Below are positions 1 to 15,623 of a stretch of DNA of 64,000 nt, piece by piece (position 1 is the first letter of the stretch; every line of letters starts with the position of its first letter). This DNA is from Sphingomonadales bacterium (GTDB lineage Bacteria > Pseudomonadota > Alphaproteobacteria > Sphingomonadales > Sphingomonadaceae): assembly GCA_038325045.1 (NCBI GenBank), contig JBBQIP010000001.1:4200-68199 (forward strand), written 5' to 3'. The translations under genes and the position numbers were made by a program. Under the pieces are notes generated by a model, which saw only the letters and a program-made list of their open reading frames with translations, searched no databases and was not told where the DNA came from.

Positions 1-1
1 G

Positions 2-193
2 TCCGCGCCAACCGTCGCGCCAACCATCTCGAACCGGCAACTGCTGGTACTCGCGTATCTGGCCATATTCCTGTTCGCAGGGCTGGTGGCTTCGATAGCG
101 GTCGAGTGGCTGTTCATCGCCTTGCTGTTTGTCGCCGTGCCGGCGTTTGCAGTCGCCGGCTTGGCTTTGATAGCTGCCGGCCGGCTCGAATGA
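2..193 (+). CDS. 3' end of a small hydrophobic membrane protein (partial, runs off the window start)
   Basis: Frame 2 is open from the window start to TGA at 191-193 and encodes two hydrophobic stretches (LLVLAYLAIFLFAGLVA; WLFIALLFVAVPAFAVAGLALIAA). Not in the ORF track. Confidence 0.5.
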   Translation, partial: SAPTVAPTISNRQLLVLAYLAIFLFAGLVASIAVEWLFIALLFVAVPAFAVAGLALIAAGRLE

Positions 194-293
194 AGGGGAT
201 CCATGGATATGGAGAGGCTGGCCGGCGCAGTGCGACACAGATCGATTGACCCTCAAATATACCACAACTGAATCAACCAGAAGGAGACAGACA

Positions 294-815
294 ATGGCGA
301 CATCGAAAACAAAGGCCCATGCACAGGACGACCCTGCCCGCTTCAGCCCTGATACCGGCCTGAAGACCGAGGGCTATCGCAAGGTCGCCAAGGCGCTGGG
401 CCCGGTGCTGGCCGACAGCTACCAGCTTTTCATCAAGACCCAGGGTGTCCACTGGAACATCTCGGGCGCCAACTTCTTCGGCCTGCACAAATTGACCGAG
501 GAGCAATATGAAGACCTGTATGCTGCGATCGATAAAATCGCCGAGCGGATCCGCACGCTCGGGGAACCTGCGCCCGCCACCTACCGCGCCTATGGCGAAA
601 TGGGCCAGATTCGGGATGAAGAGACCCGCACCGAGCCTGTCGACCAGGTCAAGATGCTGATCCGCGACAATGGTCTGGTGTGCGAAACATTGCGTGACGC
701 CATCGAGACGGCCGAGGAGCAGGATGATGTCGTGACGGCGGATATGTTGACAGCCCGCCTCGCGCGCCATGAGCAGAATGGCTGGATGCTGCGAATGTCG
801 GTGGCTGAGAGCTGA
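294..815 (+). CDS. dps: Dps family DNA-protection/ferritin-like protein
   Basis: HWNISGANFFGLHKLTEEQY...D-IAERIRTLG Dps signature; AAGGAG RBS at 281-286 before ATG 294. Confidence 0.92.
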   Translation: MATSKTKAHAQDDPARFSPDTGLKTEGYRKVAKALGPVLADSYQLFIKTQGVHWNISGANFFGLHKLTEEQYEDLYAAIDKIAERIRTLGEPAPATYRAYGEMGQIRDEETRTEPVDQVKMLIRDNGLVCETLRDAIETAEEQDDVVTADMLTARLARHEQNGWMLRMSVAES

Positions 816-839
816 CACTCGGCTCCATGGAAAGAACAG

Positions 840-876
840 CAAGCCCGTCAGCCGAACTCGGCTGGCGGGCTTGTTT
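840..876 (+). terminator. Intrinsic terminator after dps
   Basis: CAAGCCCGTCAGCCG-AACT-CGGCTGGCGGGCTTG hairpin followed by TTT. Confidence 0.7.
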
Positions 877-904
877 CATGGCCAACGGCGCTGCAGCGCC
901 TGGC

Positions 905-942
905 AAAAAAACGGGCCGCCATCTTTTCAAGACGGCGGCCCG
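905..942 (-). terminator. Intrinsic terminator for the 966-1238 gene
   Basis: CGGGCCGCC...GGCGGCCCG stem with an A7 run at 905-911 (U-tract on the minus strand). Confidence 0.75.
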
Positions 943-965
943 AAACATCGCGACTTGCTGCGCGA

Positions 966-1238
966 TTAATCTTTGGCTGGCGTGATCTCGACCGTCGGCA
1001 CCGTAACTTCTTCCTGGCGGGTGCCAACGTCGATGTCGGCGGTGTTGACGCTCACCTCGGGCACGCTGCCGCCGCTCACCGAAACTTCAGGCGCCGTCAA
1101 AGCGCCTTCCGTTTCCACATTGAAGAAGCCGGCGGCCCAGGCCAGCGCGACGATCGCCAGCATGGCCAGAATGATCAGGACAATGCGCGAATTGTTCGAC
1201 CTGCGTTCAGTGGGGTGGCGAGTATCATCGATTGCCAT
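966..1238 (-). CDS. Small single-pass membrane protein of unknown function
   Basis: N-terminal TM (IVLIILAMLAIVALAWAAGFF), acidic Val/Pro-rich C-terminus, GGGAG RBS, EcfG-like promoter and terminator. Confidence 0.8.
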   Translation of the reverse strand: MAIDDTRHPTERRSNNSRIVLIILAMLAIVALAWAAGFFNVETEGALTAPEVSVSGGSVPEVSVNTADIDVGTRQEEVTVPTVEITPAKD

Positions 1239-1269
1239 GGAGTTGCTCCCTTTCTGGTTGAACAGATAA

Positions 1270-1294
1270 AACCGCGTAAAGTGCCGATTGTTTC
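1270..1294 (-). promoter_or_regulatory. sigma-EcfG-type promoter (GAAAC-N16-GGTT)
   Basis: Minus strand GAAAC aatcggcactttacgc GGTT, upstream of 966-1238. Confidence 0.6.
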
Positions 1295-1482: not shown

Positions 1483-1917
1483 TCAGGCGGGGGGAATCGT
1501 CTGCGCCAAAAGGGTCTGCACTTCGTTGCGCATGGCCCGCAGCTCGGCCCGGTCATTGGCGTCAACGCTTGCATCGGCCGCTCTCGCATAGGCCTCACAC
1601 ACAGCGTCTTCGCCGTCGCGCACGCTTTCCATCACATCGGCATCGATATCGTCGAAGAGCGAGCGCGCCGATACCACCACCTTGTTGATGGTTCCCTGGA
1701 ACGAACCGTCGGCATCCGGCGTCTGCCCGTGGCGCCTAAGGATCGCAGCCAATCGATTGTCATGATCGGCATGAAGCGCGGAGAATCGCTGAACGACCGG
1801 CCGAAACTCGGGCTCGGCCTTTTCGACCATCTTCTCGAACCCGGTTCTGGCGTCCTGGCTGGCGGTCAGCGCATCAGCCAATGCCGCAAGGGCATCCGTA
1901 TCATTTTCTGTTGCCAT
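1483..1917 (-). CDS. PA2169/DUF2383 family four-helix-bundle (ferritin-like) protein
   Basis: DARTGFEKMVEKAE...LAAILRRHG...DGSFQGTINK...DGEDAV pattern typical of DUF2383. Confidence 0.8.
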   Translation of the reverse strand: MATENDTDALAALADALTASQDARTGFEKMVEKAEPEFRPVVQRFSALHADHDNRLAAILRRHGQTPDADGSFQGTINKVVVSARSLFDDIDADVMESVRDGEDAVCEAYARAADASVDANDRAELRAMRNEVQTLLAQTIPPA

Positions 1918-1956
1918 CGCGCTGACTCCCGTGCGGCGTTCAATCGTGTCAGCATG

Positions 1957-1981: not shown

Positions 1982-1993
1982 CGCGGTTTCGAA

Positions 1994-2725
1994 TTAATCT
2001 TCCGGTCTGCTGCCGATCACTTCCGCGAAATGCCGGGCGACGACATCGTCGCATCCGCAAGACGCCTGCTTCAGCGCCTCCGGTTTCAAAATCACGATCA
2101 GGCCGCGACTGGATTTTACCAGTCCCTCGCTCACCAGGCCGGCTATCACCCGCGCGGCATAGCTCCGCCCCACCCCCAGAACATCCGCCAGCCGCTGCTG
2201 GGTGATCGGGAAGCTGCACTCGCCGGTTCTTTCCCGCGCTTGCACCAGCCACCGCGCGGTCCGTTGGGCAACGCTATGAGCGGCCGCGCAGGCTGTGGCC
2301 TGAAAGGTCTGCGCCAGCAGGCAATCGGCATATCGCGAAAACAACGCGTCTATCTCGGGAAATTCATGTTTCAGCGCTTCGAGCCGCTCCAGCGGCAGGG
2401 CGGCGATCGAGCCCGGATATTGCACCATCGTGCGGCTGAAGGCTGGCAGAAAGCCGCCGCTGACAATCCCCCCCACGGCGCCCTCGCGGCCCACCAGCGT
2501 GGTCTCGACACTGGCACCGTCATCAAGCTCGACCAGGAAAGATATCAAGGTCGTGCCTTCAGGCAGATAGGCGTGGGTCACGTTGGAGCCGGCATCATAG
2601 AGGATATCGCCTGCACGCACGTTGAGCGTGTCGCACGCCATTGCCAGCCGCAGCCGCGCCTCCCTGGGCAAAGACAGGACCAGCCGGTTTGCCGACATGG
2701 CATCCAGCGCCTCTGGCGAAGACAT
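1994..2725 (-). CDS. Crp/Fnr family transcriptional regulator
   Basis: cNMP-binding-like domain (GDILYDAGSNVTHAYLP...VGREGAVG) plus C-terminal HTH (ITQQRLADVLGVGRSYAARV). Start placed at ATG 2725. Confidence 0.88.
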   Translation of the reverse strand: MSSPEALDAMSANRLVLSLPREARLRLAMACDTLNVRAGDILYDAGSNVTHAYLPEGTTLISFLVELDDGASVETTLVGREGAVGGIVSGGFLPAFSRTMVQYPGSIAALPLERLEALKHEFPEIDALFSRYADCLLAQTFQATACAAAHSVAQRTARWLVQARERTGECSFPITQQRLADVLGVGRSYAARVIAGLVSEGLVKSSRGLIVILKPEALKQASCGCDDVVARHFAEVIGSRPED

Positions 2726-2798
2726 AAGTATTATCCCCCGCTTGCGATGTTTTCCGGCTCTGTATCCAAGTGAACATACACCAATTGCAAAATATTGT

Positions 2799-2848: not shown

Positions 2849-4246
2849 TTGATAATAGGACCGCCTGTACTGGCCAATGGCGATGCGCAGCTCGCCGGCG
2901 ATGCGCTTGGGCCTCATCATTCGTTCCTGTGGGAGCGGCGCGAGGGCAAGACGCAGCTGGCAAACCAGTTGGCCGCCTTGATAGGCGTTGAACCCGACGC
3001 GCCCTTGTCGGTGTCCGATTTTGCCAGCTTGATCCATCCGGATGATCTGCACCAGGTGACCGAGGGCTTTTGCCGAAGCATGCGCAGCGGCGCCGCGTTC
3101 GATGTCGTTCTGCGGCTGCGGCGTGACCCGGCCGAGATGCCCCTGTGGCTCAACGTGCGCGGCGATTTTCTGCGGGATGGCGACGGCGCGCATCAGGCTG
3201 TCAAAGGCATGGTCACCGACATTTCGCAGTGGCGCCTGCAGGATTCGCCCATTATAGGGCTCGACATGCAACCGGACACCCGGATCTGCGAGCAGGACCT
3301 GCTCAATTGTCTGCCGCAGATGGTGTGGTCGGCACGGGCTGATGGCGTTACCGATTTTTACAGCCAGCGCTGGTATGATTTTACCGGCGTGCCAGTCGGC
3401 AGCACCGATGGGGACCGCTGGAGCGATGTGCTCCACCCCGATGATGCCGACCTTGCCGCCGCGCAATGGGCTTTGTGCGTGCAGCAGGGGCAAGATTATG
3501 AAATCGAATATCGCATACGCAAACATACCGGTGAATATGCCTGGGTGCTGGCACGCGCCGTACTGGCGCGCGACACTGCCGAGCGGCCGCTGCGCTGGTA
3601 TGGCACCTGCACCGATATCGATGACCGCAAGACCGCGGAAAGCCGGCGCGATCTGATCGCGGATGAACTGGCGCACCGGATCAAGAACGTCTTCACCGTC
3701 GTCAACAGCCTGATCGCTCTTTCTACCGATCGCGACACCCAGACCATTGTTTCCGCCGCACTCACCGGACGGGTGGCGGCGCTGGCCGGTGCCTATCGCC
3801 ACGTGATGCCTGCCGAAACCGCGGCTGGCGCCGGGTCGGCCGGCACGGTGCAGGGGCTGATGCATGATCTGCTCCTCCCCTATAACCAGAACGACGAGAC
3901 AAGGGTGGTTATCGAGGGCGATGATTTTCCCGTTGCGAGGGGTACCGCAACCGCCCTTGCGCTGCTGTTCCACGAGCTTGCCACCAACGGCGTAAAATAT
4001 GGCAGCCTCGGCGTTTCGGGAGGTCGCGTGACAATCGAGATCAGGATCGATGGCGACCAGATCGACATGATATGGCGGGAGAGCGGCGGCCAGGGTGTTA
4101 CCGACCCCGGCACCGAGTGCGGGTTCGGCACCAATCTCGTGGACCGGGTGGCGCGCATGCTTCTCAATGCCACCATCGAACGCACATGGCACCCGGACGG
4201 GCTGGCCGTCCGCGTGTCCATGCCCATCAAGCGTTTGCAAGGCTAG
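2849..4246 (+). CDS. Cytoplasmic PAS-PAS HWE-family sensor histidine kinase
   Basis: Two PAS_3-like domains (IHPDD; WYDFTG...LHPDD...EIEYRI), H-box ELAHRIKN, LFHELATNGVKYGSL, WRESGG, GFGT. Start codon uncertain. Confidence 0.88.
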   Translation: MIIGPPVLANGDAQLAGDALGPHHSFLWERREGKTQLANQLAALIGVEPDAPLSVSDFASLIHPDDLHQVTEGFCRSMRSGAAFDVVLRLRRDPAEMPLWLNVRGDFLRDGDGAHQAVKGMVTDISQWRLQDSPIIGLDMQPDTRICEQDLLNCLPQMVWSARADGVTDFYSQRWYDFTGVPVGSTDGDRWSDVLHPDDADLAAAQWALCVQQGQDYEIEYRIRKHTGEYAWVLARAVLARDTAERPLRWYGTCTDIDDRKTAESRRDLIADELAHRIKNVFTVVNSLIALSTDRDTQTIVSAALTGRVAALAGAYRHVMPAETAAGAGSAGTVQGLMHDLLLPYNQNDETRVVIEGDDFPVARGTATALALLFHELATNGVKYGSLGVSGGRVTIEIRIDGDQIDMIWRESGGQGVTDPGTECGFGTNLVDRVARMLLNATIERTWHPDGLAVRVSMPIKRLQG

Positions 4247-4312: not shown

Positions 4313-4813
4313 TCAACCATCCTCGTCGGTTTCGATGTGAAGTGTGGCCATGCGGCTCAGCATCCGGTCCGCTCCATAAATATCATCGAGCACTGCTTCG
4401 AGCTTGCTGACATGGTCCTGGTAGCCAAGGCTGCGCGCCATCGCAGCAGCTGTGCCAAAGCCTGAAATGCCGTAATGCGCCATGCGCTGATATTGGGCGA
4501 TGATGGCATGGTCTCCAAGGCTCTCATTGCCGAAATCGGCATCGAGCGCGTGCTTGCGAGCCTCTTTCACAAGACCTTCCATGCCCTTGCAATGCTCCTG
4601 TGCGACCTCGGCATCGATGTTCGCCAGCAACTTGCTTACCATCTCGCTATGTTCGGCAATTTCATCTGCATTGTCTTCCAGCGTATCGCCAAGATCCCCG
4701 TCATCGGCGGCGGTCGCCATGTCGAGTACTATTTTCTCCATCTGATCGTTGGCGGACCACAGATCCTGCAGCTCCTCGATGTACAGGTCCTTCAGCGTTT
4801 CAATAACACTCAT
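4313..4813 (-). CDS. DUF892/YciF ferritin-like stress protein
   Basis: TLKDLYIEELQDLWSAN...CKGMEGLVKEA...AQYQRMAHYGISGFGT. Confidence 0.88.
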   Translation of the reverse strand: MSVIETLKDLYIEELQDLWSANDQMEKIVLDMATAADDGDLGDTLEDNADEIAEHSEMVSKLLANIDAEVAQEHCKGMEGLVKEARKHALDADFGNESLGDHAIIAQYQRMAHYGISGFGTAAAMARSLGYQDHVSKLEAVLDDIYGADRMLSRMATLHIETDEDG

Positions 4814-4856: not shown

Positions 4857-4881
4857 AACGGGCAGCGCGGGGCATTGTTTC
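4857..4881 (-). promoter_or_regulatory. sigma-EcfG-type promoter (GAAAC-N16-CGTT)
   Basis: Minus strand (G)GAAAC aatgccccgcgctgcc CGTT, upstream of the DUF892 gene. Confidence 0.7.
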
Positions 4882-4987: not shown

Positions 4988-5152
4988 TCAGGCGCGCTTC
5001 ATGAATGCGACGAAAACACTGGCAAGAAACACCAGAACAAACACCGCGAACAGAATCTTGGCGATGCCAACCGATGCGCCGGCGATGCCACCAAAGCCAA
5101 GAACGCCGGCAACGATTGCGAGAATCAGAAAACCCAATGCCCAGTTCAACAT
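4988..5152 (-). CDS. DUF1328 (UPF0391/YtjA-like) small membrane protein, 54 aa
   Basis: Hand translation [54 protein letters not shown]; AGGAGG RBS. Below the ORF-track size cut-off. Confidence 0.9.
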
Positions 5153-5199
5153 GATAACCTCCTGAAAAATGCAGCCCGAAAGGCCGATACAATCAGGGA

Positions 5200-5224
5200 A
5201 ACCGGTTACCGTGAGGTTTGTTCC
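5200..5224 (-). promoter_or_regulatory. sigma-EcfG-type promoter (GGAAC-N16-GGTT)
   Basis: Minus strand GGAAC aaacctcacggtaacc GGTT; overlaps the last codons of the upstream kinase gene. Confidence 0.75.
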
Positions 5225-6858
5225 CTTTGCAGCCTTAATGGGGGTTGCGGCCTGTCGGGCAGGGCTGGATGAAAGGCACGCAGGGGCTCAAAGTTGATGC
5301 GCAACGAGGGCGGTTCGGACCCTGTGATAATCGATCCGCCGAGCTGGCGGCCAAACCCCGCCACCAGGCCGTTTTCGGCCACGCTCTCAGGGCTTGCCCC
5401 ACCCTCCCAGCTGATTATCAGCTCCAGCCTTTTGTCGATACCGCGCGCTGCAATCACAACAGCTTGCCCATCGACAAGCCTGTCGGTCAGTTCGACCAGC
5501 AGCAGTGTCGTGGTCGTTGCGGTATCGATGTCCATCCGCGCCAGCGAGGCCCCCTTGTCAATCGCCACATCGATCGGCCTTTGCCAGGCAGTGCCATGAT
5601 GGCTCGAAATCAGCCGGCCGAGTTCGGTGATGAGTACTGGCGCTTCGATATCCATGATCTCGCCCTTGTCATAAAGCAGCCGATGGACCAGCGACAACGC
5701 CGCAACCCGCAATTGCGCATTGGCCAGGGGGCGCTGCTCATTGCCGTCGCCGGCGCGCAACGCCAGATAGCTGCTGACAATCTGCAGATTGTTTTTCACC
5801 CGGTGGTGCAACTCCAGCGACATCAGCCGTTGCTGCGCCAGTGCATCGCGAAGCCCGGCGCCGTGCTGTGCCATGGCGCGCGCCATCTTCTGCATCGAAG
5901 AAGCGAGGCTGCGAATTTCATCGGGCGCATCGGCAAATTTGCGGATATTCAACCGGTGCTGCCCGCCGCCGATACGCACCGCTGCATCGCGCAGCCGGTC
6001 GATCCAGCGCAGCAGCATCCAGTTGGTGGCAATCCATAGCGCGAGCGACGAGATCAGAATTGCCAGCAACGGCACGACAAACAGCGAAATCAGCACACCC
6101 GGCCTAGGCCCGAACAAGCCGTAATCACGCTGCACAGCCACAACCCGCAGCGCAGGCATGTTCAAGCCGGGTATCTGCAGCGGCTGCTGGGTGATTGACC
6201 ATTGCCGGCTGTCGCCAGCGCGGCCGGTGACCACCCCCGTTTCTGCCAACGCCGGAAACCGCTGCCAGGGCAGACTGCGGCTCTGCGCCAGAATCGAGCC
6301 GTCCTGTGTCGCGATTACGATCGTCTCATCCCGGCTGGCATGGCGCCGAGCCAGCGCCGCCCGATAGGCCGCAAGGTCGAATCGCGCGACAATTCTGCCG
6401 GATTGACCAGCGTGCCGCCAAGGCGCGGAAAGGGTGATAGCATTCACGCCGAATGGCACAGAGCTTCCGCAAAGCAGCTCGCCGGTATCGGCCTCGCTTC
6501 TGATCGAGGCGAGGTTCGCAAACATGGCTTCGGTTACATTGAACAGGTCGCGACACGTCGTCGACGAACCCGTTGCAACGGCTTCATCGGCAGCCAGAAG
6601 TTTCAAGCCGTCATGAAGCTGGTCAAAGCCAATCGTTTCGATCGTCGCCGCTTGCAGCGCCGTCCTGGCAAGAGCGGCCGCCAGCTGCTTGCGTTCAGCG
6701 GCCAGCCGCACCCCGCCCTGGATGAAGGCGAACAGCATGAGCGGCGCCAAGGTAAATACCAGCACGACAACCAGAGTGCGCCTGATCGAGCTGCGACGCG
6801 CAATTCGGTCCAGAAAGCCGGCGATGAGCAGCGGTGGCGGGCCGGCCAGTCTTTTCAT
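5206..6858 (-). CDS. Membrane-bound HisKA_2-type kinase-like protein with degenerate ATP-binding domain (PhyT/PhyP-like)
   Basis: Two TM segments, periplasmic domain, HAMP-like linker, H-box [13 protein letters not shown] and [15 protein letters not shown]1 and G2 boxes are not recognisable. ATGA overlap with ecfG. Confidence 0.8.
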
Positions 6859-7406
6859 GAATCCGCGTTTGCATCAACGGGCGGGCGCGCCATCGCCACC
6901 TCTTCGGGGCCGTCCATGAAGCGCCGCAGCGCCGTCCTGCCGCGGGTTATGCGGCTTTTGACCGTGCCCAACGGTACATCGGTGACCCTCGCAATCTCCT
7001 CCCATGCCATCCCCGATTCCACCAGCAGCAGCGCCTCCCGCTGCTCGGCCGACAGGCTCGCCAATCCGCGCGAGAGATCGGCAAGCAACAGCCCGCCGCC
7101 CTGGTTTGGCGGTGTGGTCAAGATTTGCTCTGCCACCTGCGGATCCAGGCTCGTAACCCGCTTCGAGAGCTTGATCGTGGTGTAGAAATGGTTACGCAGG
7201 ATGCGGAACATCCAGGCCTTGAAATTGGTGCCCTGTGTGTAGGAAGCGCGCGCCGCCCAGGCTTTTACCAGTGTTTCCTGCGCCAGATCATCCGCAAGGT
7301 CCCGGTTACCTGAAAGGCCACGCGCAAAGGCGCGCAAACTCGGGATGATGCCGACGATATCGGCACGAAACGCCGCATCGGCCGATCGATCGGTCTGGCC
7401 GGCCAT
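6855..7406 (-). CDS. ecfG: ECF15 sigma factor sigma-EcfG (RpoE2/SigT type)
   Basis: IPSLRAFARGLSG...ADDLAQETLVKAW...GTNFKAWMFRILRN and GTVKSRITRGR; located directly after nepR and divergent from phyR. Confidence 0.92.
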   Translation of the reverse strand: MAGQTDRSADAAFRADIVGIIPSLRAFARGLSGNRDLADDLAQETLVKAWAARASYTQGTNFKAWMFRILRNHFYTTIKLSKRVTSLDPQVAEQILTTPPNQGGGLLLADLSRGLASLSAEQREALLLVESGMAWEEIARVTDVPLGTVKSRITRGRTALRRFMDGPEEVAMARPPVDANADS

Positions 7407-7612
7407 CAGGGCTTCCGGACCGGAGCAGCCTGTTCGTCCGGAGTTTCGCCATCACCGTTTTGACGCTGTTCGTCGATTGCATCGAGCAGATTGAGAAACT
7501 CATCTGGCACCGCCTCATTCTCAAGCTCTACCCAGAGCTGACGCAGGCCGGCGCCAATTGAATCGCTGAGGATCCTGGCACGCCGGCGCCTGCCTGGTGG
7601 CTCTTGCTCCAC
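7406..7612 (-). CDS. nepR: NepR anti-sigma factor
   Basis: IGAGLRQLWVELENEAVPDEFLNLLDAID matches the NepR core; GTG 7612 follows GAGGGAG RBS; stop overlaps the ecfG start. Confidence 0.85.
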   Translation of the reverse strand: MEQEPPGRRRRARILSDSIGAGLRQLWVELENEAVPDEFLNLLDAIDEQRQNGDGETPDEQAAPVRKP

Positions 7613-7647
7613 GTGTTTCGCTCCCTCGTCCGACACAACTTTTTAAT

Positions 7648-7672
7648 AACACGCATCGCCAAAAAATGTTCC
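7648..7672 (-). promoter_or_regulatory. sigma-EcfG promoter of the nepR-ecfG-kinase operon (GGAAC-N16-TGTT)
   Basis: Minus strand GGAAC attttttggcgatgcg TGTT. Confidence 0.85.
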
Positions 7673-7680: not shown

Positions 7681-7705
7681 GGAACTTTTTTGCAGATGCG
7701 ACGTT
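7681..7705 (+). promoter_or_regulatory. sigma-EcfG promoter of phyR (GGAAC-N16-CGTT)
   Basis: GGAAC ttttttgcagatgcga CGTT, a perfect consensus match, back-to-back with the nepR promoter. Confidence 0.9.
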
Positions 7706-7744: not shown

Positions 7745-8590
7745 ATGACACAGGCTAGCGAAACCACCCCTGTTGCAGCCCCTGTTGCAGCGCTTGACGC
7801 CGCCCATCGGCAGCTATCATTGCGCGAACTTCTCGGCCCGCAATTGCCGTTCCTGCGGCGCTACGCCCGCGCCCTTGCCGGCGACCAGCAGCAGGGAGAC
7901 AGTTTTGTCCGGGCAGCACTTGAGGCCGTGCTGGCCGACCCCGACCGCGCCACGATTGACGCCAATTCGCCCAAATTGTCGCTGTTCCGCATGTTCCACA
8001 CTTTCTGGGGGCCACAGAACGGCTTGTCGCCGGCCAGCGAGAGCGCGGTTTCGGTGCTCGAGGCGCTGCCATTGTCGGGTAGGGAAGCGCTGCTGCTGAC
8101 CGCAATGGAAGAATTCTCGGTGGCAGAAGCGGCAATCATTCTCGGACTTCCGGCCAGCGCCATTGCAAGCGAGCTGGATGCCGCCCGCTTGCAGGTTGGC
8201 GAGGCGATGCGCGCACGCGTGCTCATCATCGAGGATGAGCCGATCATCGCCATGCACATCGAGCAGATCATGCTCGACATGGGCCATGATGTGGTGGGTA
8301 TCGCGATGACGCGGGACGATGCTGTGTTGCTGGCGCGGGAGGAGCGCCCCGACATCGTTCTGGCCGATATCCAGCTTGCCGACGGCTCGTCTGGAATCGA
8401 TGCGGTTGAAACCATCCTCGCCGATTTCACCGTGCCGATCGTGTTCATCACCGCCTATCCCGAACGGTTGTTGACCGGTCAACGACGGGAACCCGCCTAT
8501 CTCGTCACCAAACCTTTCAACCCCGACACCGTTGTCGCCACCATCGGGCAGGCGTTGCTCCTCCACAGCAAAAGGCATGCAGCTGCTTGA
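7745..8590 (+). CDS. phyR: PhyR anti-anti-sigma response regulator
   Basis: N-terminal sigma-like domain (LPFLRRYARALAG) fused to a receiver (VLIIEDEPIIA...LADIQLADGSSGIDAV...FITAYPERLLTG...TKPF). GGAGAG RBS before ATG 7745. Confidence 0.95.
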   Translation: MTQASETTPVAAPVAALDAAHRQLSLRELLGPQLPFLRRYARALAGDQQQGDSFVRAALEAVLADPDRATIDANSPKLSLFRMFHTFWGPQNGLSPASESAVSVLEALPLSGREALLLTAMEEFSVAEAAIILGLPASAIASELDAARLQVGEAMRARVLIIEDEPIIAMHIEQIMLDMGHDVVGIAMTRDDAVLLAREERPDIVLADIQLADGSSGIDAVETILADFTVPIVFITAYPERLLTGQRREPAYLVTKPFNPDTVVATIGQALLLHSKRHAAA

Positions 8591-8609: not shown

Positions 8610-8634
8610 GGAACATTTTGCGGGGCTAGCGGTT
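8610..8634 (+). promoter_or_regulatory. sigma-EcfG promoter (GGAAC-N16-GGTT)
   Basis: GGAAC attttgcggggctagc GGTT, upstream of the CsbD gene. Confidence 0.8.
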
Positions 8635-8687
8635 GAATCCATGAGGCGTCTGCGCCTCGCTCACCCCCATGCATGGAAGGAAAGACG

Positions 8688-8888
8688 ATGAACTGGGACC
8701 GTATTGAAGGAAATTGGCAGCAATTCACCGGGAAGGTGAAGGAAAGCTGGGGCAAGCTCACCGACGATGACCTGACCGAGATCGCCGGCCGCCGGGATGT
8801 GATGGTTGGCAAGGTGCAGGAGCGCTACGGCATTGCCAAGGACGAAGCCGAACGCGAAGTCGACAACTTCTCGAGCAAACTTTCCTGA
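8688..8888 (+). CDS. CsbD/YjbJ family general stress protein
   Basis: MNWDRIEGNWQQFTGKVKESWGKLTDDDL...GKVQERYGIAKDEAE. Confidence 0.93.
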   Translation: MNWDRIEGNWQQFTGKVKESWGKLTDDDLTEIAGRRDVMVGKVQERYGIAKDEAEREVDNFSSKLS

Positions 8889-9241
8889 GCTAGCGATACT
8901 GCGGGCCGGCATCAGCCTTTACAATGGCCGGACAATAGCAAAGCCGGCCCGCACGCTATACTGATAAAGCTTTATACCAGTTCGTCTGGCACCAGCCAGG
9001 CCGGGCGGCCAAACCGGCGCGCGCGGGCCAGCGCATCCGCCGGAAGCTGCGCCAGAATGCAGCATGGAGAAGATGCGCTAAACTCGGCCCAAAACCGGAA
9101 AGCTGCAGCCGCACGGTGACCCCGCGCCGCAATAACCGGGCCGATATCCGACGCGCCGAGCAGCCACAAGACAGATGCAGCAGGAGCGATCACGACCGTT
9201 GCTCGCAATGCCCGGCAACCGCTCCGCAGATCATGCCAGGA

Positions 9242-9589
9242 TCAGCCCGGCGAGGCCAGGGACTGACCCTTGGGACCATGCCGGTTTGCACGGTATTGCC
9301 GCACAATCACCACCCCCGCCACCGCCAGAGCCGCAGCGGCAAGGGCCGGCTGCTTTCGCAGCAGCCGGGTTGCGGCTGCCAGCACGCTGCTGCCGCCGAC
9401 AAGCTTGGCCACTTTGGACAGATTCTCGACCATGGGTTTCAGGTCGAAGCCGCTGCTTTCGTCGGTGTCCACCGCGGTCGGTTGAACGGGTGCATTGCTG
9501 GCGGGCGGCGGCACAGTGCCGGTGGCCGGTGCGGCGGTTGAAGGGGCGGGCGCCGTAGGGGCGGGCGCTGCTGTTTTACCGGGCATCAT
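9242..9589 (-). CDS. Pro/Ala-rich protein with a C-terminal hydrophobic anchor, unknown function
   Basis: AGGAG RBS before ATGATG 9589; low-complexity N-terminus; ALAAAALAVAGVVIVR tail. Confidence 0.65.
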   Translation of the reverse strand: MMPGKTAAPAPTAPAPSTAAPATGTVPPPASNAPVQPTAVDTDESSGFDLKPMVENLSKVAKLVGGSSVLAAATRLLRKQPALAAAALAVAGVVIVRQYRANRHGPKGQSLASPG

Positions 9590-9639: not shown

Positions 9640-10164
9640 TCAATCAAGCCGCGCTTCGACATTGTTCCCGATGTCGGCTGCGCTGTTGCCGGTAATGAGC
9701 GCCGCTGCCATTTTCACGATCGCCACCGGCGTCGACGGCCCGTCCCAAAGTTCTGCAATCCGCGGGGTCACCCGAATTGCCAGAATCGCCTCGTCTTCCG
9801 GACCGCCGGGAAAAAACGCCTGGGCCGACACGCTCCACAGATCCTTCACAATGGCCCGGTCATCGATCACCTCTGCGGTTCCGGTGACCGCAACATGCGT
9901 CGAGCTGGCATCGGTGAACACCATTGCGCACCGGCTGTCGGATTCGATTTCCTTGTCCTTGATGGTCGACCGGTCGGTCAAAAACCACACCAGGCCTTCC
10001 TCGGCGCGCACGATCGCCGACATTGGCCGCGCATGCGGGCCGGCCTGAGTTTGCGTGACGAGAAACGCCGTCCGCTCCGAGTCCATCACGTCCCATATCC
10101 GTTCCACATCGTCGCTCGATGCTGGCTGGGGATCGACCGGCTTTTCGGTGGTCGTCATCGTCAT
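9640..10164 (-). CDS. Pyridoxamine-5'-phosphate-oxidase-like general stress protein
   Basis: IWDVM...HARPMSA...LVWFLTD...K-KEIE...VAVTG-AEV-DDRA-VKDLWS...FFPGGPED...AELWD; AGGAG RBS. Confidence 0.85.
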   Translation of the reverse strand: MTMTTTEKPVDPQPASSDDVERIWDVMDSERTAFLVTQTQAGPHARPMSAIVRAEEGLVWFLTDRSTIKDKEIESDSRCAMVFTDASSTHVAVTGTAEVIDDRAIVKDLWSVSAQAFFPGGPEDEAILAIRVTPRIAELWDGPSTPVAIVKMAAALITGNSAADIGNNVEARLD

Positions 10165-10197: not shown

Positions 10198-10222
10198 AAC
10201 GACCGGCAATCCTGAATGTTCC
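10198..10222 (-). promoter_or_regulatory. sigma-EcfG promoter (GGAAC-N16-CGTT)
   Basis: Minus strand GGAAC attcaggattgccggt CGTT, a perfect consensus match. Confidence 0.88.
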
Positions 10223-10236: not shown

Positions 10237-10262
10237 GGAACCTTCGCTACCACTTCAAGGTT
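10237..10262 (+). promoter_or_regulatory. sigma-EcfG-type promoter (GGAAC-N17-GGTT)
   Basis: GGAAC cttcgctaccacttcaa GGTT, divergent from the 10198-10222 motif. Confidence 0.7.
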
Positions 10263-10298
10263 CTGAGAGTTTGAGCTGTATTTTGAGGAGGTGTGACC

Positions 10299-10658
10299 AT
10301 GCCGACAGAGCCAACCGACCACTCTCACGCGACATCGCAGGAAACGGATGCGGATTTCGACGCGGCCGTCGCCGATCCTTCCGCCTTTTTCGAAAGCCCT
10401 GCTGCCATCGTCGCCGATACCGAGATGACCGATGAACAGAAGCAGCGCTTCCTTGCTGCCTGGGAGCAGGACATCACGGCGCGCCAGCGTGCTGCGGAGG
10501 AAGGCATGGTGCCTGAAGCGGGCAGTGGCGCCGATAACGACGCCGCCCAGCTGAAGCGCGTGAAGGCCGCCATCGGCCAGCTTGATGCCACTCCCTCCGC
10601 TGCCACCACCCCCGGCAGGTCGCACTGGAAGCGCTGGGGCCGGGACACCCTGGCCTGA
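10299..10658 (+). CDS. Small protein of unknown function (paralog of 13868-14221)
   Basis: GAGGAGG RBS; motif DPSAFFESPAAIVAD...KQRFLAAWEQDITAR. Confidence 0.8.
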   Translation: MPTEPTDHSHATSQETDADFDAAVADPSAFFESPAAIVADTEMTDEQKQRFLAAWEQDITARQRAAEEGMVPEAGSGADNDAAQLKRVKAAIGQLDATPSAATTPGRSHWKRWGRDTLA

Positions 10659-10752: not shown

Positions 10753-11247
10753 ATGATGACGAATACTTCAGGACACCAGAGCAGTCCGGCCTATGGCAGC
10801 ACCGGCGCCACCGACGCCATGACCGGCAACCGTTCACAGCACGACCGCGGTGATCTCATTGCCGCAAGCCGGGTGAAGGGCACCAATGTCTATGACAAGT
10901 CCGGCGAAAAGATCGGGTCGATCGACGACATCATGGTCGGCAAGCGAAATGGCGAGGTTGCCTATGCGGTGATGTCGTTCGGTGGCTTCCTCGGCATCGG
11001 CGAAAAATTCCACCCGTTGCCTTGGGATGCGCTGGATTATGACACCGAAATCGACGGTTACCGGGTTGGCGCTGCGGGCGAAAAATTCCGCGACGCGCCC
11101 AGCTACAGCCGCGAAGGGCTGGAAGACCAGCGTTGGAGCGAAGACACCGATCGCTATTACAATGATCGCTCTACCGCCAACTGGCTCGATCGCCGCGACA
11201 CCACCGGCGTCGGTTCCGCTTACGGCACGACCCAGGGTCGTCAGTAA
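10753..11247 (+). CDS. PRC-barrel domain protein
   Basis: LIAASRVKGTNVYDKSGEKIGSIDDIMV...YAVMSFGGFLGIGEKFHPLPW; AGGAGA RBS. Confidence 0.92.
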   Translation: MMTNTSGHQSSPAYGSTGATDAMTGNRSQHDRGDLIAASRVKGTNVYDKSGEKIGSIDDIMVGKRNGEVAYAVMSFGGFLGIGEKFHPLPWDALDYDTEIDGYRVGAAGEKFRDAPSYSREGLEDQRWSEDTDRYYNDRSTANWLDRRDTTGVGSAYGTTQGRQ

Positions 11248-11431: not shown

Positions 11432-13867
11432 GTGCCGGACACGCTGAAGATGACGAACGATCGGCTGGGGCTGATTGTCGAGGACGCGTCCAGCGAAGTT
11501 TATGTTTTTGCCGCCGATGATGGCAAATTCCGCCTCGTCAATCGCGGCGGGCGGGACAATCTTGGCTACACCCTTGAAGAGCTCCACGAGCTGACGCCGT
11601 GGGATATCAAGCCGGAGTTCAACCGCGACCGGTTTATGGCGATGATCGACCCGCTGTTCACCGGCCAGCGCACGAGCCTCGATTTTGAAACCCTGCACAG
11701 GCGCAAGGACGGCACGCTCTATGACGTGTCGATCAAGCTGCAGCTCATCAGCAATGACGGGGACGATGTCTTCTACGCTGCTTGTGAGGACATCACCCAC
11801 CGCAAGCTGATCGAGGCACAGCTGAAAAAGGCATCCTCGCGGCTTGATGCCATCCTGGATAACACCACCATGGCCGTGATGATGATGGATGAGCGCCAGC
11901 ACTGCGTGTTCATGAACAAAGCCGCCGAAGAGCTGACCGGCTTCACATTCGCTGAAACAGCAGGCCGGACGCTGCACGAGGTCATCCACCACAGCTACCC
12001 CGATGGCAGCCATTATCCTGTGGCGGAATGCGCGATCTACCGCTCCTTCCCGGAAAACCGGCGGAATCAGGGCGAGGATGTTTTCATCCACAAGGACGGG
12101 CATTTCTACCCTGTCAGCTTCACCGCATCGCCGGTGAAAAGCGAGGATGGTGGTTCCATCGGCACCGTGATCGAAGTTTGTGACATCTCCTTTCAGATTG
12201 CTGCGCGCAAAGAGCGGGAGGCTTTCAATGAAACGCTCAAAGCGAAAGTCGACGACGCGCTCGCCGAACGCGCTGAGCTTGAAGCCCAGCTGATCCAGGC
12301 CCAGAAAATGGAAGCCGTTGGCCAGCTGACCGGCGGCGTTGCGCATGATTTCAACAATCTGCTGCAAGTCATCGGCAGCAATCTCGAAATGCTCGAAAAG
12401 GAGATCCCGCCGAACGATCTGCGCGCCAAGCGCATCCACAATGCGCTGCAGGGCGTGGAGCGCGGCGCCAAGCTTGCCGCACATCTTCTCGCCTTTGGTC
12501 GCCAACAGGCGCTCGAACCACGGCCGATCAATCTCGGCGCCCTTGTTCGCGGCATGGACGACATGCTGGGGCGCACCCTCGGCGAGATGATCGAGGTTGA
12601 GACCGTGATCTCGGGCGGCCTGTGGAATTGCCTCGCCGATCCGGCGCAGGTGGAGAACATGCTCCTCAACCTCGCGATCAACGGCCGCGACGCCATGGAC
12701 CATCGCGGCAAGCTCACCGTCGAAGCCGGCAATGCCTCGCTCGATGATAGGTATGCGGGTGGCCACAATGAGGTCGCGGCGGGCCAATATGTGATGCTCG
12801 CCGTCACCGACACCGGCATGGGCATAGCGCCCGAGGTCATCGACCGCGTTTTCGACCCGTTCTTTACGACCAAGGGCCCGGGCCAAGGCACCGGGCTGGG
12901 GCTCAGCATGGTATATGGCTTCGTCAAGCAATCGGGCGGCCATATCAAGATTTACAGCGAACAAGGCCAGGGCACCACGGTTCGCATCTATCTGCCGCGC
13001 ACGCGCCGCAAGGCCGATGAACAGGCCAGCGAAGTGCTGGTGACCCCGGGCACCGGCCGCGGCGAGGTGGTGCTGGTGGTTGAAGATGATGACGCCGTGC
13101 GGATGACCACGACCGAGCTGGTGAAGGATCTTGGCTATGCCGTGCTGGAAGCCAGCAACGCCGACAATGCTCTCGCCATCATCAAAAGCGGCCTGAAGAT
13201 CGATCTGCTGTTTACCGATGTCGTCATGCCCGGCACGCTCAGAAGCCCCGAGCTTGCGCGCCAGGCCAAGCAGCGCCTCCCTGAAATCAGGGTGTTGTTC
13301 ACGTCCGGCTACACCCAGAATGCCATCGTCCACGCCGGCCGGCTGGATGACGGGGTCGATCTCATCAGCAAGCCCTACACCCGCGATGTGCTGGCGCGGA
13401 AAATGCGGGAGGTGCTTGATCGCGGCAAGCCCGAAAGCGCGTCGCCCGCGGCCGGAGCGCGGGCGGCAAAAGATTCCAGTCGTCCACCCTCATTGCGTAT
13501 CCTGGTGGTGGAAGACGAGACGATCATCCGCATGGTCGCTGTCGATATGCTGGCGCAGATGGGCCATATTCTCGTCGATGCCGCCTCGGTTGCCGAAGCG
13601 ACCGAAAAGCTGGCCACCACCGCGTTCGACCTGATCTTCACCGATCTGGGCCTGCCCGACGGCTCCGGCTTCGACCTCATCAGGCACGTTCGCACCCATT
13701 TTCCGGCAATGGGCATACTGGTCGCATCGGGACATGGCCGCGATGCCTATCCGGAAGATCTGTGTGCGGTCGACTCAATCATCCACCTGTTCAAACCCTA
13801 TAACGAGCAATCGCTCGTCGATGCCGTGCAGCGCTTCATCGCCGACCGCGCCGAGGCAGCGGCATGA
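11432..13867 (+). CDS. PAS-PAS hybrid sensor kinase with two receiver domains
   Basis: Two PAS domains, QAQKMEAVGQLTGGVAHDFNNLL, LNLAINGRDAM, DTGMG, FFTTKGPGQGTGLGLSMVYGF, then REC (VLVVEDD...LFTD) and a second REC (ILVVEDE...IFTD). Confidence 0.93.
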   Translation: MPDTLKMTNDRLGLIVEDASSEVYVFAADDGKFRLVNRGGRDNLGYTLEELHELTPWDIKPEFNRDRFMAMIDPLFTGQRTSLDFETLHRRKDGTLYDVSIKLQLISNDGDDVFYAACEDITHRKLIEAQLKKASSRLDAILDNTTMAVMMMDERQHCVFMNKAAEELTGFTFAETAGRTLHEVIHHSYPDGSHYPVAECAIYRSFPENRRNQGEDVFIHKDGHFYPVSFTASPVKSEDGGSIGTVIEVCDISFQIAARKEREAFNETLKAKVDDALAERAELEAQLIQAQKMEAVGQLTGGVAHDFNNLLQVIGSNLEMLEKEIPPNDLRAKRIHNALQGVERGAKLAAHLLAFGRQQALEPRPINLGALVRGMDDMLGRTLGEMIEVETVISGGLWNCLADPAQVENMLLNLAINGRDAMDHRGKLTVEAGNASLDDRYAGGHNEVAAGQYVMLAVTDTGMGIAPEVIDRVFDPFFTTKGPGQGTGLGLSMVYGFVKQSGGHIKIYSEQGQGTTVRIYLPRTRRKADEQASEVLVTPGTGRGEVVLVVEDDDAVRMTTTELVKDLGYAVLEASNADNALAIIKSGLKIDLLFTDVVMPGTLRSPELARQAKQRLPEIRVLFTSGYTQNAIVHAGRLDDGVDLISKPYTRDVLARKMREVLDRGKPESASPAAGARAAKDSSRPPSLRILVVEDETIIRMVAVDMLAQMGHILVDAASVAEATEKLATTAFDLIFTDLGLPDGSGFDLIRHVRTHFPAMGILVASGHGRDAYPEDLCAVDSIIHLFKPYNEQSLVDAVQRFIADRAEAAA

Positions 13868-14221
13868 TCACGCCCCCACAATTTCGACCAGACGCCGCCA
13901 CAGGCCGGGGCGGGACGCTTCAACAGCCCGGTCGCCGGCTTGGCCACCTTGCTGCTGCAAAGACACTCTGATCGCCTCCTGACACGCATTGTAATGACTG
14001 CTCTCATCACACTGGGCAGCCAGGTCGCCAGCAACCATATCAAGCCGGCGCGCCTCTATCTCATCGGCCCAATGATACAGGAACCGCCGCTTCAGCTGCA
14101 CGCTCAACGCCGGGTCCGCCAGTATCTCTGCCGGGCCGGCATAGAATTTAGCCGGTTCTATAGGGGGAGGAGCAGCGGCGTCCCCCGATCCAGAGTTCGC
14201 ACCCGGTCGCACTGTGTACAC
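13868..14221 (-). CDS. Small protein of unknown function (paralog of 10299-10658)
   Basis: GAGGAG RBS before GTG; motif EPAKFYAGPAEILAD...KRRFLYHWADEIEAR; probably co-transcribed after the SDR gene. Confidence 0.7.
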   Translation of the reverse strand: MYTVRPGANSGSGDAAAPPPIEPAKFYAGPAEILADPALSVQLKRRFLYHWADEIEARRLDMVAGDLAAQCDESSHYNACQEAIRVSLQQQGGQAGDRAVEASRPGLWRRLVEIVGA

Positions 14222-14260
14222 ACGCTCTCTCCTCGATAAGGGGAACCATTGCCGCGCGCT

Positions 14261-15298
14261 TCAGGAAACAGCGTCATCCCGGCTCCTGAGCGCCGCATTG
14301 ATCGCCAGCGCCGACAGGCCGAGCGTAATCGCCGCAATCGCCGCCGCCGCTACGGGCCGCATCTGCGCTTCCAGCCACAGGCTCTGCTTGCGCACCGGAA
14401 TATCCTGCTCGCTATCGATGTTGCCGTCGCGGCGCGGTTCCCACAAATTGTCACGCGTGCCAGGCGGCGCCGGCGTGTCGATCTGCTGCGCCGTGCGGCC
14501 GACCATTGCCATCGCCTTGTCGGCAAGGGATGGCATCAGCTTGCCGAGCACCGAGACCATCAGCCCATTGCCACCGACAGTCAGTTCGCGGCGCGGATTT
14601 TGCGCTGCAAATACAATCGCCCTGGCCACCAGCCGGGGGTCATAGACCACTGGCGGCACGGTGGCCGGCTTGTCCATCAGGTTGCGCGCGTGTTCCGCAT
14701 AGGGCGTGTGCATTCCGGTAGGCTTGATCAGCGTCACCGAGATCGGCACATCCTGCTCCTGCAATTCCATCCGCAGCCCATCGGTGAAACCCTTCACGGC
14801 GTGTTTCATCGCCGAATAGCTGCCCTGCAGGATCATCGTGCGCTCCGAGAGCACCGAGCCCAGATTGATCACCGCGCCGCCCTGCTCGCGCATCAGCTCA
14901 ACCGCCTTGAGCGCGCCGCGCACCGTGCCGAAATACCCGACGTCGAACACCCGGCGATGGTCGTTCGCATCGATCTCCACCAGCTCGCCGTAGAGCGAGG
15001 TGGCCGCGTTGTTCACCCAGCTGTCAACGCGCCCGAACGTGCTGATTGCGACATCGGCAATCTTGTTGGCCGCTTCCTCATCGGCAACATCGGCGACCAC
15101 CACTTCGACCTTGCTGCCGGCATCGCGCAACCGCCCGGCAATTTCGCCAAGCGCCTCGCCGTTTCTCGAAGACAGGACAAGCGACGCGCCCTTTCTGGCA
15201 GCCAGTTCGGCGGTCGCCAGCCCGATGCCGCTCGATGCGCCGGTAATCACCATCACCTGCTGCTCGATCGGCCTGAGTTGAAGTCGGGTCGTCGTCAT
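14261..15298 (-). CDS. SDR family oxidoreductase with C-terminal extension
   Basis: VITGASSGIG, WVNNAA, YSAMK catalytic motif; GGAG RBS before ATG 15298. Confidence 0.9.
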   Translation of the reverse strand: MTTTRLQLRPIEQQVMVITGASSGIGLATAELAARKGASLVLSSRNGEALGEIAGRLRDAGSKVEVVVADVADEEAANKIADVAISTFGRVDSWVNNAATSLYGELVEIDANDHRRVFDVGYFGTVRGALKAVELMREQGGAVINLGSVLSERTMILQGSYSAMKHAVKGFTDGLRMELQEQDVPISVTLIKPTGMHTPYAEHARNLMDKPATVPPVVYDPRLVARAIVFAAQNPRRELTVGGNGLMVSVLGKLMPSLADKAMAMVGRTAQQIDTPAPPGTRDNLWEPRRDGNIDSEQDIPVRKQSLWLEAQMRPVAAAAIAAITLGLSALAINAALRSRDDAVS

Positions 15299-15326
15299 CA
15301 CAATCTCCTCTGCCATTGCCCGATAC

Positions 15327-15351
15327 AATGGCTGAGGGGCCGGATAGTTCC
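15327..15351 (-). promoter_or_regulatory. sigma-EcfG-type promoter variant (GGAAC-N16-CATT)
   Basis: Minus strand GGAAC tatccggcccctcagc CATT, upstream of the SDR gene. Confidence 0.65.
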
Positions 15352-15570
15352 GCTTGCATCGGCAGTCAGCCTGCCAGGCGGCAATATTACCTCTGTCGTA
15401 ATTTCCCGTTGGCATGGAAGGACGTCCGTTGACCGGACTTTTGGCGCTCAAGAAGCGTTGCTGTCAGTGCGAGTCGCGCCCTGTTCTTGCGGCGTCTTGC
15501 ACCCCATAAATCGGCTCCAGGCATTGGCGGCGATGCGCCTGACCCGCCCAAAAGGCCGAAAACACGCGAG

Positions 15571-15610
15571 CAATCCCGCACTGTCCGGGACAATCCCGGA
15601 TAACCCCGGG
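15571..15610 (+). repeat. Four degenerate 10-bp direct repeats next to the tRNA 3' end
   Basis: CAATCCCGCA / CTGTCCGGGA / CAATCCCGGA / TAACCCCGGG, in exact 10-bp register. Confidence 0.55.
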
Positions 15611-15623
15611 CAAAGTGAATGGG

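Follow-up and report, generated by a model that had tools for sequence, protein, structure and literature searches.

A general stress response cluster with regulators and putative effectors side by side, next to tRNA-Arg(ACG) in a Polymorphobacter-group sphingomonad

How does a general stress response (GSR) switch come to lie in one piece with its sensors and putative target genes, directly against a tRNA gene? The question is raised by positions 1-15623 (hereafter the block) of a 64,000-nucleotide stretch of a Sphingomonadales bacterium (assembly GCA_038325045.1, contig JBBQIP010000001.1); this whole stretch is called the window. The original prediction, made from the letters alone, had described the block as a horizontally acquired cassette inserted at the 3' end of tRNA-Arg(ACG). 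We find that the block is a GSR cluster of a Polymorphobacter-group sphingomonad, with regulators and effectors side by side, which continues past the left edge of the window. As to its history, we give a probability of roughly 55% to relocation or exchange within the family as a unit. For horizontal acquisition as a tRNA island the evidence is circumstantial, and controls account for part of it.

The switch itself is encoded in the middle of the block. The anti-anti-sigma response regulator PhyR (7745-8590, plus strand; NF006623, 316 bits against a cutoff of 240) matches PF22029 (PhyR_sigma2), PF22233 (PhyR_sigma-like) and PF00072 (Response_reg), and its receiver holds, as judged by eye, the stretch 'VLADIQLADGSSG' with the expected acceptor Asp. 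Divergent from phyR, on the minus strand, the gene for the anti-sigma factor NepR (7406-7636; PF18557, 34.3 bits against a cutoff of 25.7) lies immediately upstream of ecfG (6855-7406), the second gene of the nepR-ecfG operon. The domains of the encoded ECF sigma factor (Sigma70_r2, Sigma70_r4_2 and PhyR_sigma2) and its operon context fit the EcfG type (ECF15); NCBIfam ECF models score under their cutoffs.

Three kinase-type genes accompany the switch. Beside ecfG, a membrane HAMP-HisKA_2 protein of PhyK/PhyT-like appearance (5206-6858, minus strand; HisKA_2, 55.4 bits, plus HAMP) carries an 'HHRVKNN' box. Pfam detects no ATPase domain (HATPase_c) in it, a missing profile match not being proof of a degenerate domain, and the NCBIfam PhyK model aligns to it over positions 150-431 of 537 only. 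A cytoplasmic PAS-PAS histidine kinase of the HWE family is encoded at 2849-4246 on the plus strand (PAS_3, 94.6 bits; HWE_HK, 46.7 bits; HATPase_c at 18.9 bits is under the 26.4 cutoff), and a hybrid sensor kinase with PAS-PAS-HisKA-HATPase_c-REC-REC architecture at 11432-13867, also on the plus strand. A single-domain response regulator of the SdrG/LovR type is not among the block genes. The circuit had been announced as complete, and this stands: PhyR, NepR, EcfG and kinase inputs of the HWE/HisKA_2 family (HWE_HK in 2849-4246, HisKA_2 in 5206-6858) were all found. With families assigned by Pfam and NCBIfam, fifteen genes scored above thresholds and the predicted inventory was confirmed: the kinase-type genes number three, there is a single Crp regulator, and the stress genes come to about eleven. 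Genes were called by codon-position GC, because this GC-rich DNA is full of spurious open reading frames (ORFs), such as 9116-9541 and 13940-14239, both on the plus strand.

Predicted EcfG-type promoters tie the stress genes to this switch. The 15.6-kb block contains seven copies of the strict motif GGAAC-N16-18-GTT; the remaining 48 kb of the window have five (binomial p = 0.012), and shuffled block sequence has 1.1 on average. Each of the seven is correctly oriented and precedes a start codon by 30-50 nucleotides (nt). Two of them are the motifs of nepR (7648-7672, minus strand) and phyR (7681-7705, plus strand); the others precede genes for a DUF2383 (ferritin-like) stress protein (1483-1917, minus strand; PF09537, 81.9 bits; promoter 1957-1981), a DUF1328 small membrane protein (4988-5152, minus strand; PF07043, 49.9 bits; promoter 5200-5224), a CsbD-like stress protein (8673-8888, plus strand; PF05532, 81.4 bits; promoter 8610-8634), a PNPOx-like protein of the 'general stress protein 26' type (9640-10164, minus strand; PF16242, 116.3 bits; promoter 10198-10222) and an acidic 121-aa protein with no family match (10293-10658, plus strand; promoter 10237-10262). 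GAAAC variants lie upstream of a 90-aa membrane-anchored protein with no family match (966-1238, minus strand; GAAAC-N-GTT at 1270-1294; 38% identity to hyp108 of the phyR locus L167), of a DUF892 (YciE/YciF-like, ferritin-fold) stress protein (4313-4813, minus strand; PF05974, 115.7 bits; motif 4857-4881) and of the Crp/Fnr-family regulator (1994-2725, minus strand; PF13545), where the motif is the weaker GAAAC-N17-GTT at 2799-2823. A GGAAC variant precedes the PRC-barrel gene (10753-11247, plus strand; PF05239). Altogether, predicted EcfG-type promoters stand on at least nine transcription units, among them two back-to-back divergent pairs (nepR/phyR and PNPOx/121-aa), and at least ten genes that adjoin the core in an unbroken run are putative EcfG targets.

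These motifs are conserved by position. The corresponding block of a related genome (L081, GCA_038204585.1; ~75% DNA identity) keeps the motif position for DUF2383, DUF892, DUF1328, nepR, phyR, PNPOx and PRC, the last with a strict motif where the window has the variant. The DUF1328 promoter is also kept in the Sandarakinorhabdus phyR locus L084, the PNPOx promoter in L082 and L084, and the autoregulatory phyR and nepR motifs recur in L081, L082, L084, L085 and L167. The block motif agrees with the experimentally derived EcfG consensus of Sphingomonas melonis, GGAAC-N17-20-GTT, where Crp-family, PRC-barrel and 'general stress protein 26' genes are among the direct targets (PMC6599016); dps served as a GSR reporter transcript in quantitative reverse-transcription PCR in Erythrobacter litoralis (10.1101/641647). 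Enrichment, placement and conservation in L081 together support, at the level of sequence, the earlier description of the block as self-wired.

The DUF1328 promoter (5198-5224) is near-palindromic (GGAAC-N17-GTTTC) and therefore also reads as GAAAC-N-GTT on the opposite strand; this plus-strand reading aims into the 3' end of the kinase gene. In E. litoralis, a palindromic EcfG site was reported as driving bidirectional transcription (10.1101/641647).

Judging from the protein families, stress would be sensed by the PAS-HWE kinase and the PAS-PAS hybrid kinase, and phosphoryl groups would pass to PhyR either straight from them or by way of the ecfG-adjacent membrane HisKA_2 protein. Phosphorylated PhyR would then capture NepR and so release EcfG, which would transcribe from GGAAC-N16-17-(C)GTT promoters; those before nepR-ecfG and phyR would provide positive feedback, and others stand before at least seven neighbouring stress genes. 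The HisKA_2 protein may act as a PhyT-type phosphotransferase, because no ATPase domain is recognisable in it; in S. melonis, PhyT both takes phosphate from a receiver protein for transfer to PhyR and restrains PhyR (PMC5898713). By analogy, one receiver domain of the hybrid kinase may fill the role of SdrG, and it is the obvious candidate phosphate donor because the block holds no gene for a single-domain receiver. Domain content and promoters are observed; the order of the phosphorelay is what we infer from them.

The same arrangement is found elsewhere. Its 13-kb core, from Dps (294-815, plus strand; PF00210, 89 bits; 83% and 81% identity to the L081 and L082 copies) to the hybrid kinase, the last gene of the module, is present in at least three Polymorphobacter-group genomes including that of the window, each time with different neighbours. 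Three close cluster representatives of the window PhyR (83%, 78% and 78% identity) were found, and their contigs carry this module. In L081, 13 genes are collinear at 57-87% amino-acid identity (87% for EcfG, 59% for the 121-aa protein); the L081 gene order is lipoprotein, small membrane protein, Dps, DUF2383, Crp, PAS-HWE, DUF892, DUF1328, HisKA_2, EcfG, NepR, PhyR, PNPOx, hypothetical protein, PRC and hybrid kinase. L082 and L083, two assemblies that may come from one sample, hold a reduced copy of 8-9 module genes, in which the core kinase-ecfG-nepR-phyR-PNPOx-hybrid kinase is intact; the hybrid kinase is 72-74% identical between the window and the L081/L082 copies. A metagenome scan with an alignment of the hybrid kinase, which relied on generic kinase-motif patterns, returned no match above 57% identity; it did return one distant Dps-EcfG-PhyR-kinase-CsbD cluster (L091).

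In the reduced copy (L082 2100-5040 and L083 1-2141, the JGI and Logan copies), frameshifts interrupt crp and the PAS-HWE gene, only part of DUF2383 is left, and DUF892, DUF1328, PRC and CsbD are absent, which looks like decay of the accessory part.

Two further genes complete the layout of the block. At its left end, the 3' part of a gene for a two-helix membrane protein (2-193, frame +2, plus strand), seen by six-frame translation, occupies the place of the 88-aa membrane protein upstream of Dps in L081. This small ORF crosses the left edge of the window, and the block therefore begins left of position 1; the predicted extent holds for the contiguous run through 15623 and fails for the start at position 1. 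Downstream of the PNPOx-like gene, a Pro/Ala-rich membrane-anchored protein with no family match (9242-9586, minus strand) was recognised from its ORF and translation.

This much conservation disposes of the notion that clustering and motifs are due to chance or to an artefact of ORF calling, which we consider hardly credible. Some ORFs in such GC-rich DNA are indeed spurious, but fifteen genes above Pfam/NCBIfam thresholds, 13 genes collinear in another genome, and motifs that are enriched and kept in position refute it.

What surrounds the module differs from genome to genome. In the window its neighbours are an SDR-family oxidoreductase and tRNA-Arg. The SDR protein (14261-15298, minus strand; adh_short, 138.5 bits; NF005495, 342.6 bits), which has a C-terminal membrane anchor, is not found in L081 or L082 and so lies outside the conserved module. 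In L082 the neighbours are aldehyde dehydrogenase, NUDIX, TetR, tRNA-Ala and Ppx genes, and the right flank is housekeeping DNA with higher GC than the block. In L081, a 5'-truncated and frameshifted acrB remnant (15217-15980, profile positions 782-1018 of 1021) begins 119 nt past the stop codon of the hybrid kinase and is a rearrangement scar at the module edge. Neither in L081 nor in L082/L083 does tRNA-Arg stand beside the module.

Is the block then simply the ancestral GSR locus of this lineage? PhyR loci of the family allow a comparison. The Sandarakinorhabdus DWP1-3-1 locus reads DUF1328, dCache-HisKA_2, ecfG, nepR, phyR, PNPOx, and shares with the block the order DUF1328-kinase-ecfG-nepR-phyR-PNPOx. 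In JBIMKZ, a Polymorphobacter metagenome-assembled genome (MAG), the GSR locus, situated on another contig, reads dCache-HisKA_2, ecfG, nepR, phyR, crp. A sister clade of the block-type PhyR (65-68% identity), picked out with a neighbour-joining PhyR tree that has no support values and few named tips and served for this purpose only, has loci of the order Crp, PAS-HWE, hypothetical protein, HisKA_2, EcfG, NepR, PhyR. In the two Polymorphobacter-like genomes concerned, these sit in a housekeeping setting, between malate synthase/Trm112/thioredoxin-TPR and AMP-ligase/CSD genes; the malate synthase of these genomes shares 88% identity with one that bears the label Polymorphobacter sp. Because relatives' phyR loci share gene order and the Crp/PAS-HWE genes, we take the block for a family-internal elaboration of a chromosomal locus and not for an import from outside the family.

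A purely vertical history would make the block the only GSR locus, ancestral and fast-diverged, with neighbours that differ through general scrambling and a tRNA that is adjacent by accident. The gene order common to relatives' loci speaks for it, and so does the general divergence of PhyR in the family, 49-65% between genera; for the same reason, a PhyR identity of 55%, such as that between the window and JBIMKZ, proves little. Two further points in its favour are that a GC dip is typical of this class of loci and that right-flank synteny is gone ~5 kb from the tRNA in all relatives (both detailed below). We nevertheless hold it to be quite unlikely. The JBIMKZ and Sandarakinorhabdus loci both keep a PIG-L/acyl-CoA dehydrogenase/NodS-type methyltransferase trio within 10 kb, at a PhyR identity of 49%, whereas the window-type block switches neighbours at 78-83%; the truncated acrB at the L081 edge marks a rearrangement at the block boundary; and the 120 best PhyR matches include none from CP180346.1, the closest complete genome, which by inference lacks the block type. 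Relocation or exchange of the module as a unit, the reading that we prefer, would run as follows. The 13-kb core from Dps to the hybrid kinase would be an old conserved module, which would have grown by adding EcfG-dependent genes to the family's Crp/PAS-HWE/HisKA_2/ecfG/nepR/phyR locus, would have moved as a block among related genomes, and in the window genome would now lie in the flank of tRNA-Arg.

That flank was the starting point of the original prediction. The adjacency was described correctly: the block ends at 15623, and tRNA-Arg(ACG) occupies 15624-15700 on the minus strand (ARAGORN; Rfam RF00005, 65.8 bits), so that its 3' end at 15624 faces the block. It is the sole Rfam match across the whole window and likewise the single tRNA reported by ARAGORN. 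The composition step also lies where it was placed, at the tRNA. Overall GC is 0.61 in the block and 0.67 in the rest of the window; in 2-kb windows it stays at 0.59-0.63 to ~14 kb, climbs through the tRNA to 0.68-0.73 and then ranges over 0.64-0.72. At third codon positions, GC (GC3) averages 0.714 across 15 genes of the block, and 48 genes of the backbone reach 0.797 (Mann-Whitney p = 1e-6).

As a sign of acquisition, the step is unspecific. The phyR locus of Sandarakinorhabdus (L084) is surrounded by ordinary chromosomal genes; there, GC3 is 0.73 in GSR genes and 0.82 in the flanks (p = 6e-4). Corresponding values are 0.685 and 0.738 in L169 (p = 0.006), 0.685 and 0.725 in L167 (p = 0.076), 0.75 and 0.80 in L085 (p = 0.31), and 0.69 and 0.78 in L082 (p = 0.002). 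The window dip of 0.083 is matched by that of the phyR core of L084 (0.09), and the L169 core dips as well (0.05); since phyR loci among ordinary chromosomal genes dip similarly, the GC3 dip is not diagnostic of recent acquisition. We conclude that the lower G+C of the block is largely a trait common to GSR loci of the family rather than a sign that the block came recently from outside. After this control, the GC step was dropped as an argument that would prove horizontal transfer.

The site itself can be followed in relatives by means of the genes right of the tRNA, where a type III polyketide synthase (PKS) places the window in the Polymorphobacter/Sandarakinorhabdus/Glacieibacterium group of the Sphingomonadales. 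With a best PKS identity of 82-83% among 5.8 billion proteins searched, the collections hold no relative of the same species. At least 12 relatives, none above ~83% PKS identity, keep the order tRNA-Arg(ACG), lipoprotein, (S58 peptidase), PKS, methyltransferase, FAD oxidoreductase, and in 0 of 12 does the GSR block lie on the 3' side of the tRNA. The original prediction had proposed to look for an empty site there; the block is absent, and all 12 carry other DNA at this position. Almost no genes on the tRNA 3' side are common to any two relatives; the complete Polymorphobacter genome CP180346.1, for instance, has TonB-receptor, PepSY, DUF3489 and methylase genes. As a control for synteny, we looked to the right of the tRNA, where the same genomes share nothing from ~5 kb out, past the PKS operon. 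The differing left flanks are therefore not specific to the tRNA-Arg site: the right flank is equally unshared beyond the PKS operon, and relatives this distant have broadly reshuffled gene orders. For this reason, we no longer take left flanks that vary from relative to relative as proof of an integration hot spot.

Two side observations concern these neighbourhoods. After the PKS operon, the window has an osmotic-stress set (19074-25234: MscS channel, Na+/H+ exchanger, trehalose-6-phosphate synthase of family GT20 and a GH15 trehalase-like enzyme); this ~6-kb segment looks like a second variable insertion, because in L173 the PKS, methyltransferase and FAD oxidoreductase genes are followed immediately by a homologue of window 26097-26930. 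In Sandarakinorhabdus (L084 12644-13992), phyR has genes for a prepilin peptidase A24 and a 2OG-Fe(II) oxygenase at a distance of 2-3 kb; another Polymorphobacter-like contig (P0129) has this pair ~8-10 kb from the tRNA-Arg/PKS region, which hints that the phyR and tRNA-Arg neighbourhoods may once have been close.

The strongest competitor of our reading is a site-specific integrative island at the tRNA-Arg(ACG) 3' end, derived from a lower-GC relative and bringing a complete, possibly second, GSR, with integrase and far attachment site (att) left of the window. Several observations favour it and weigh against relocation as we describe it. The closest relative, JBIMKZ (L001), carries at the 3' side of the same tRNA (8252-8328 in that contig) a DUF2924 gene and a 601-aa large serine recombinase (segment 5818-8009), beyond which lower-GC DNA encodes several proteins of the GST and glyoxalase families. 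This is probably an integrative element whose cargo serves detoxification, and the recombinase indicates that mobile elements use the tRNA-Arg flank. The JBIMKZ backbone is at a median of ~75% amino-acid identity to the window (ArgG 92%), and PhyR and EcfG are discordantly low: the JBIMKZ and Sandarakinorhabdus loci reach 55% for PhyR, 55-60% for EcfG and ~30% for the kinase, and JBIMKZ alone 55%, 60% and, for its dCache-sensor kinase, 30%. With PhyR/EcfG identity so far under that of the backbone, the window GSR core is not a simple vertical counterpart of the JBIMKZ locus, and the low values would fit acquisition or a second GSR system. Moreover, the block is below its flanks by 6-7 GC points in the window and L082, and by only 2-3 in the ~0.62-GC genomes L081, L167 and L169; a larger dip in high-GC hosts would fit an origin in a lower-GC relative. 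The GC/GC3 step exactly at the tRNA, the absence of the block from this site in 12 relatives, and a module with three different sets of neighbours and a truncated acrB scar at one edge point the same way. Finally, plasmid-borne GSR cores with Dps, DUF1328 and Crp exist, as discussed below for Dinoroseobacter shibae.

The hallmarks of such an island are not in view. Pfam and NCBIfam detect no integrase, transposase, conjugation or phage gene in 1-15623, although a distal integrase could lie beyond the left edge of the window, as does the left boundary of the block, and with it the distal part of any element. The sequence at the tRNA-Arg 3' end whose direct repeat would be att is TGGTGCACCCGGAACGATTCGAAC; no second copy of the 24-nt tRNA 3' end with up to three mismatches, and no matching boundary repeat, occurs in the window, the far boundary lying outside it. 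In tRNA islands, the integrase usually adjoins the tRNA. Here the neighbour of the tRNA is the SDR gene, and the integrase and duplicated tRNA 3' end that the original prediction had proposed to look for were both missing from the window. Nor was a near-identical copy of the block found on plasmids, where megablast gave only kinase-domain similarity of ~70%, or on viral contigs, where a PhyR scan gave no match. At the protein level, copies of the block have diverged by 13-43%, so that any transfer is old. A second phyR or ecfG is absent from the 64-kb window. Given also that the GC dip recurs at relatives' phyR loci among ordinary chromosomal genes, and that right-side synteny is equally eroded beyond the PKS operon, we regard an integrative island as possible but doubtful. 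Of the horizontally acquired tRNA island first proposed there remain the adjacency to the tRNA, the absence from this site in 12 relatives and a module with differing neighbours; integrase and att are missing from the window, and the GC and synteny signals are unspecific. Nothing visible shows that the block can move by itself. A bolder version, in which a portable, self-contained GSR cassette of sensors, phosphorelay, partner switch and EcfG-promoted effectors circulates among Sphingosinicellaceae, carried by recombinase-driven elements with the tRNA-Arg(ACG) flank as their target, and adds a second, independently wired stress regulon in one step, seems unlikely to us.

How does the block compare with known systems? 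As in S. melonis Fr1 (phyR, nepR, ecfG, phyT) and E. litoralis DSM 8509 (phyR, nepR, ecfG, gsrP), phyR and nepR-ecfG are divergent with EcfG-type promoters between them, a membrane HisKA_2-type protein lies beside ecfG, the promoter consensus is the same, and target classes include Dps, Crp-family, PRC-barrel and GSP26-type proteins (10.1101/641647, PMC6599016, PMC5898713). In both organisms, however, the locus consists of four genes, and other kinases (Paks, LovK, GsrK) and the regulon lie elsewhere: lovKR and gsrK of E. litoralis are not adjacent to the GSR locus (10.1101/641647), and target gene numbers of S. melonis span #0072 to #3509 (PMC6599016). The block, in contrast, has three kinase-type genes, the Crp regulator and its putative EcfG targets contiguous with the core in a conserved 13-kb module, and possesses a hybrid kinase with two receiver domains in place of a single-domain regulator of the SdrG or LovR type.

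Another cluster is on the 153-kb extrachromosomal replicon pDSHI02 of D. shibae (NC_009956.1), where no more than ~8 kb separates the genes for a sensor kinase, a sigma factor, NepR and PhyR from Dps, DUF1328, Crp/Fnr and osmoprotectant genes (cluster at 41763-53344, L171). Glucosylglycerol-phosphate synthase (ggpS) is near, and ParB and recombinase genes are within 12 kb. Potentially mobile DNA can carry a GSR core along with local stress genes, as the pDSHI02 cluster indicates. It differs from the block in belonging to Rhodobacterales, with PhyR 46% identical and another gene order and accessory genes, and in its position on a replicon and not beside a tRNA. Literature searches for a GSR island or a mobile or plasmid-borne GSR module returned neither a description of this cluster nor anything else of relevance. 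With tRNA-associated genomic islands, the block has in common that it adjoins a tRNA 3' end, differs in composition, is not at the site in relatives, and that the closest relative has an element with a recombinase there; it differs from them in that its visible part has no integrase, att duplication or transfer gene, and its compositional and synteny signals are unspecific by the controls.

In the model organisms, a four-gene GSR core is separated from its kinases and from roughly 100-200 targets, whereas here much of the pathway and its putative direct targets form one 13-kb unit. This makes the block a convenient natural minimal regulon for dissecting EcfG promoter logic, for asking whether a two-receiver hybrid kinase can stand in for what Pak and SdrG do separately in the phosphorelay of S. 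melonis, and for moving an entire stress response from strain to strain. Should movement as a block prove true, which is at present a hypothesis, even a global stress regulon would be exchangeable as a module.

Two minor features of the backbone right of the tRNA may be added. The type III polyketide synthase-methyltransferase-FAD oxidoreductase operon (16418-19333) is collinear in about 70 of 80 fetched loci (L001-L080), with hosts among Sphingomonadales, Caulobacterales, Acetobacteraceae and even Acidobacteria and with the methyltransferase displaced in a few Novosphingobium; it presumably resembles the phenolic-lipid operon srsABC of Streptomyces. Further right, the window encodes an EgtD-type histidine methyltransferase (31429-32391; PF10017, 358.6 bits). 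The syntenic neighbour of this gene in L173 is a DinB_2/FGE-sulfatase (EgtB-like) gene, with a window counterpart at about 30140-31430, and the two suggest a putative ergothioneine biosynthesis pair in the backbone.

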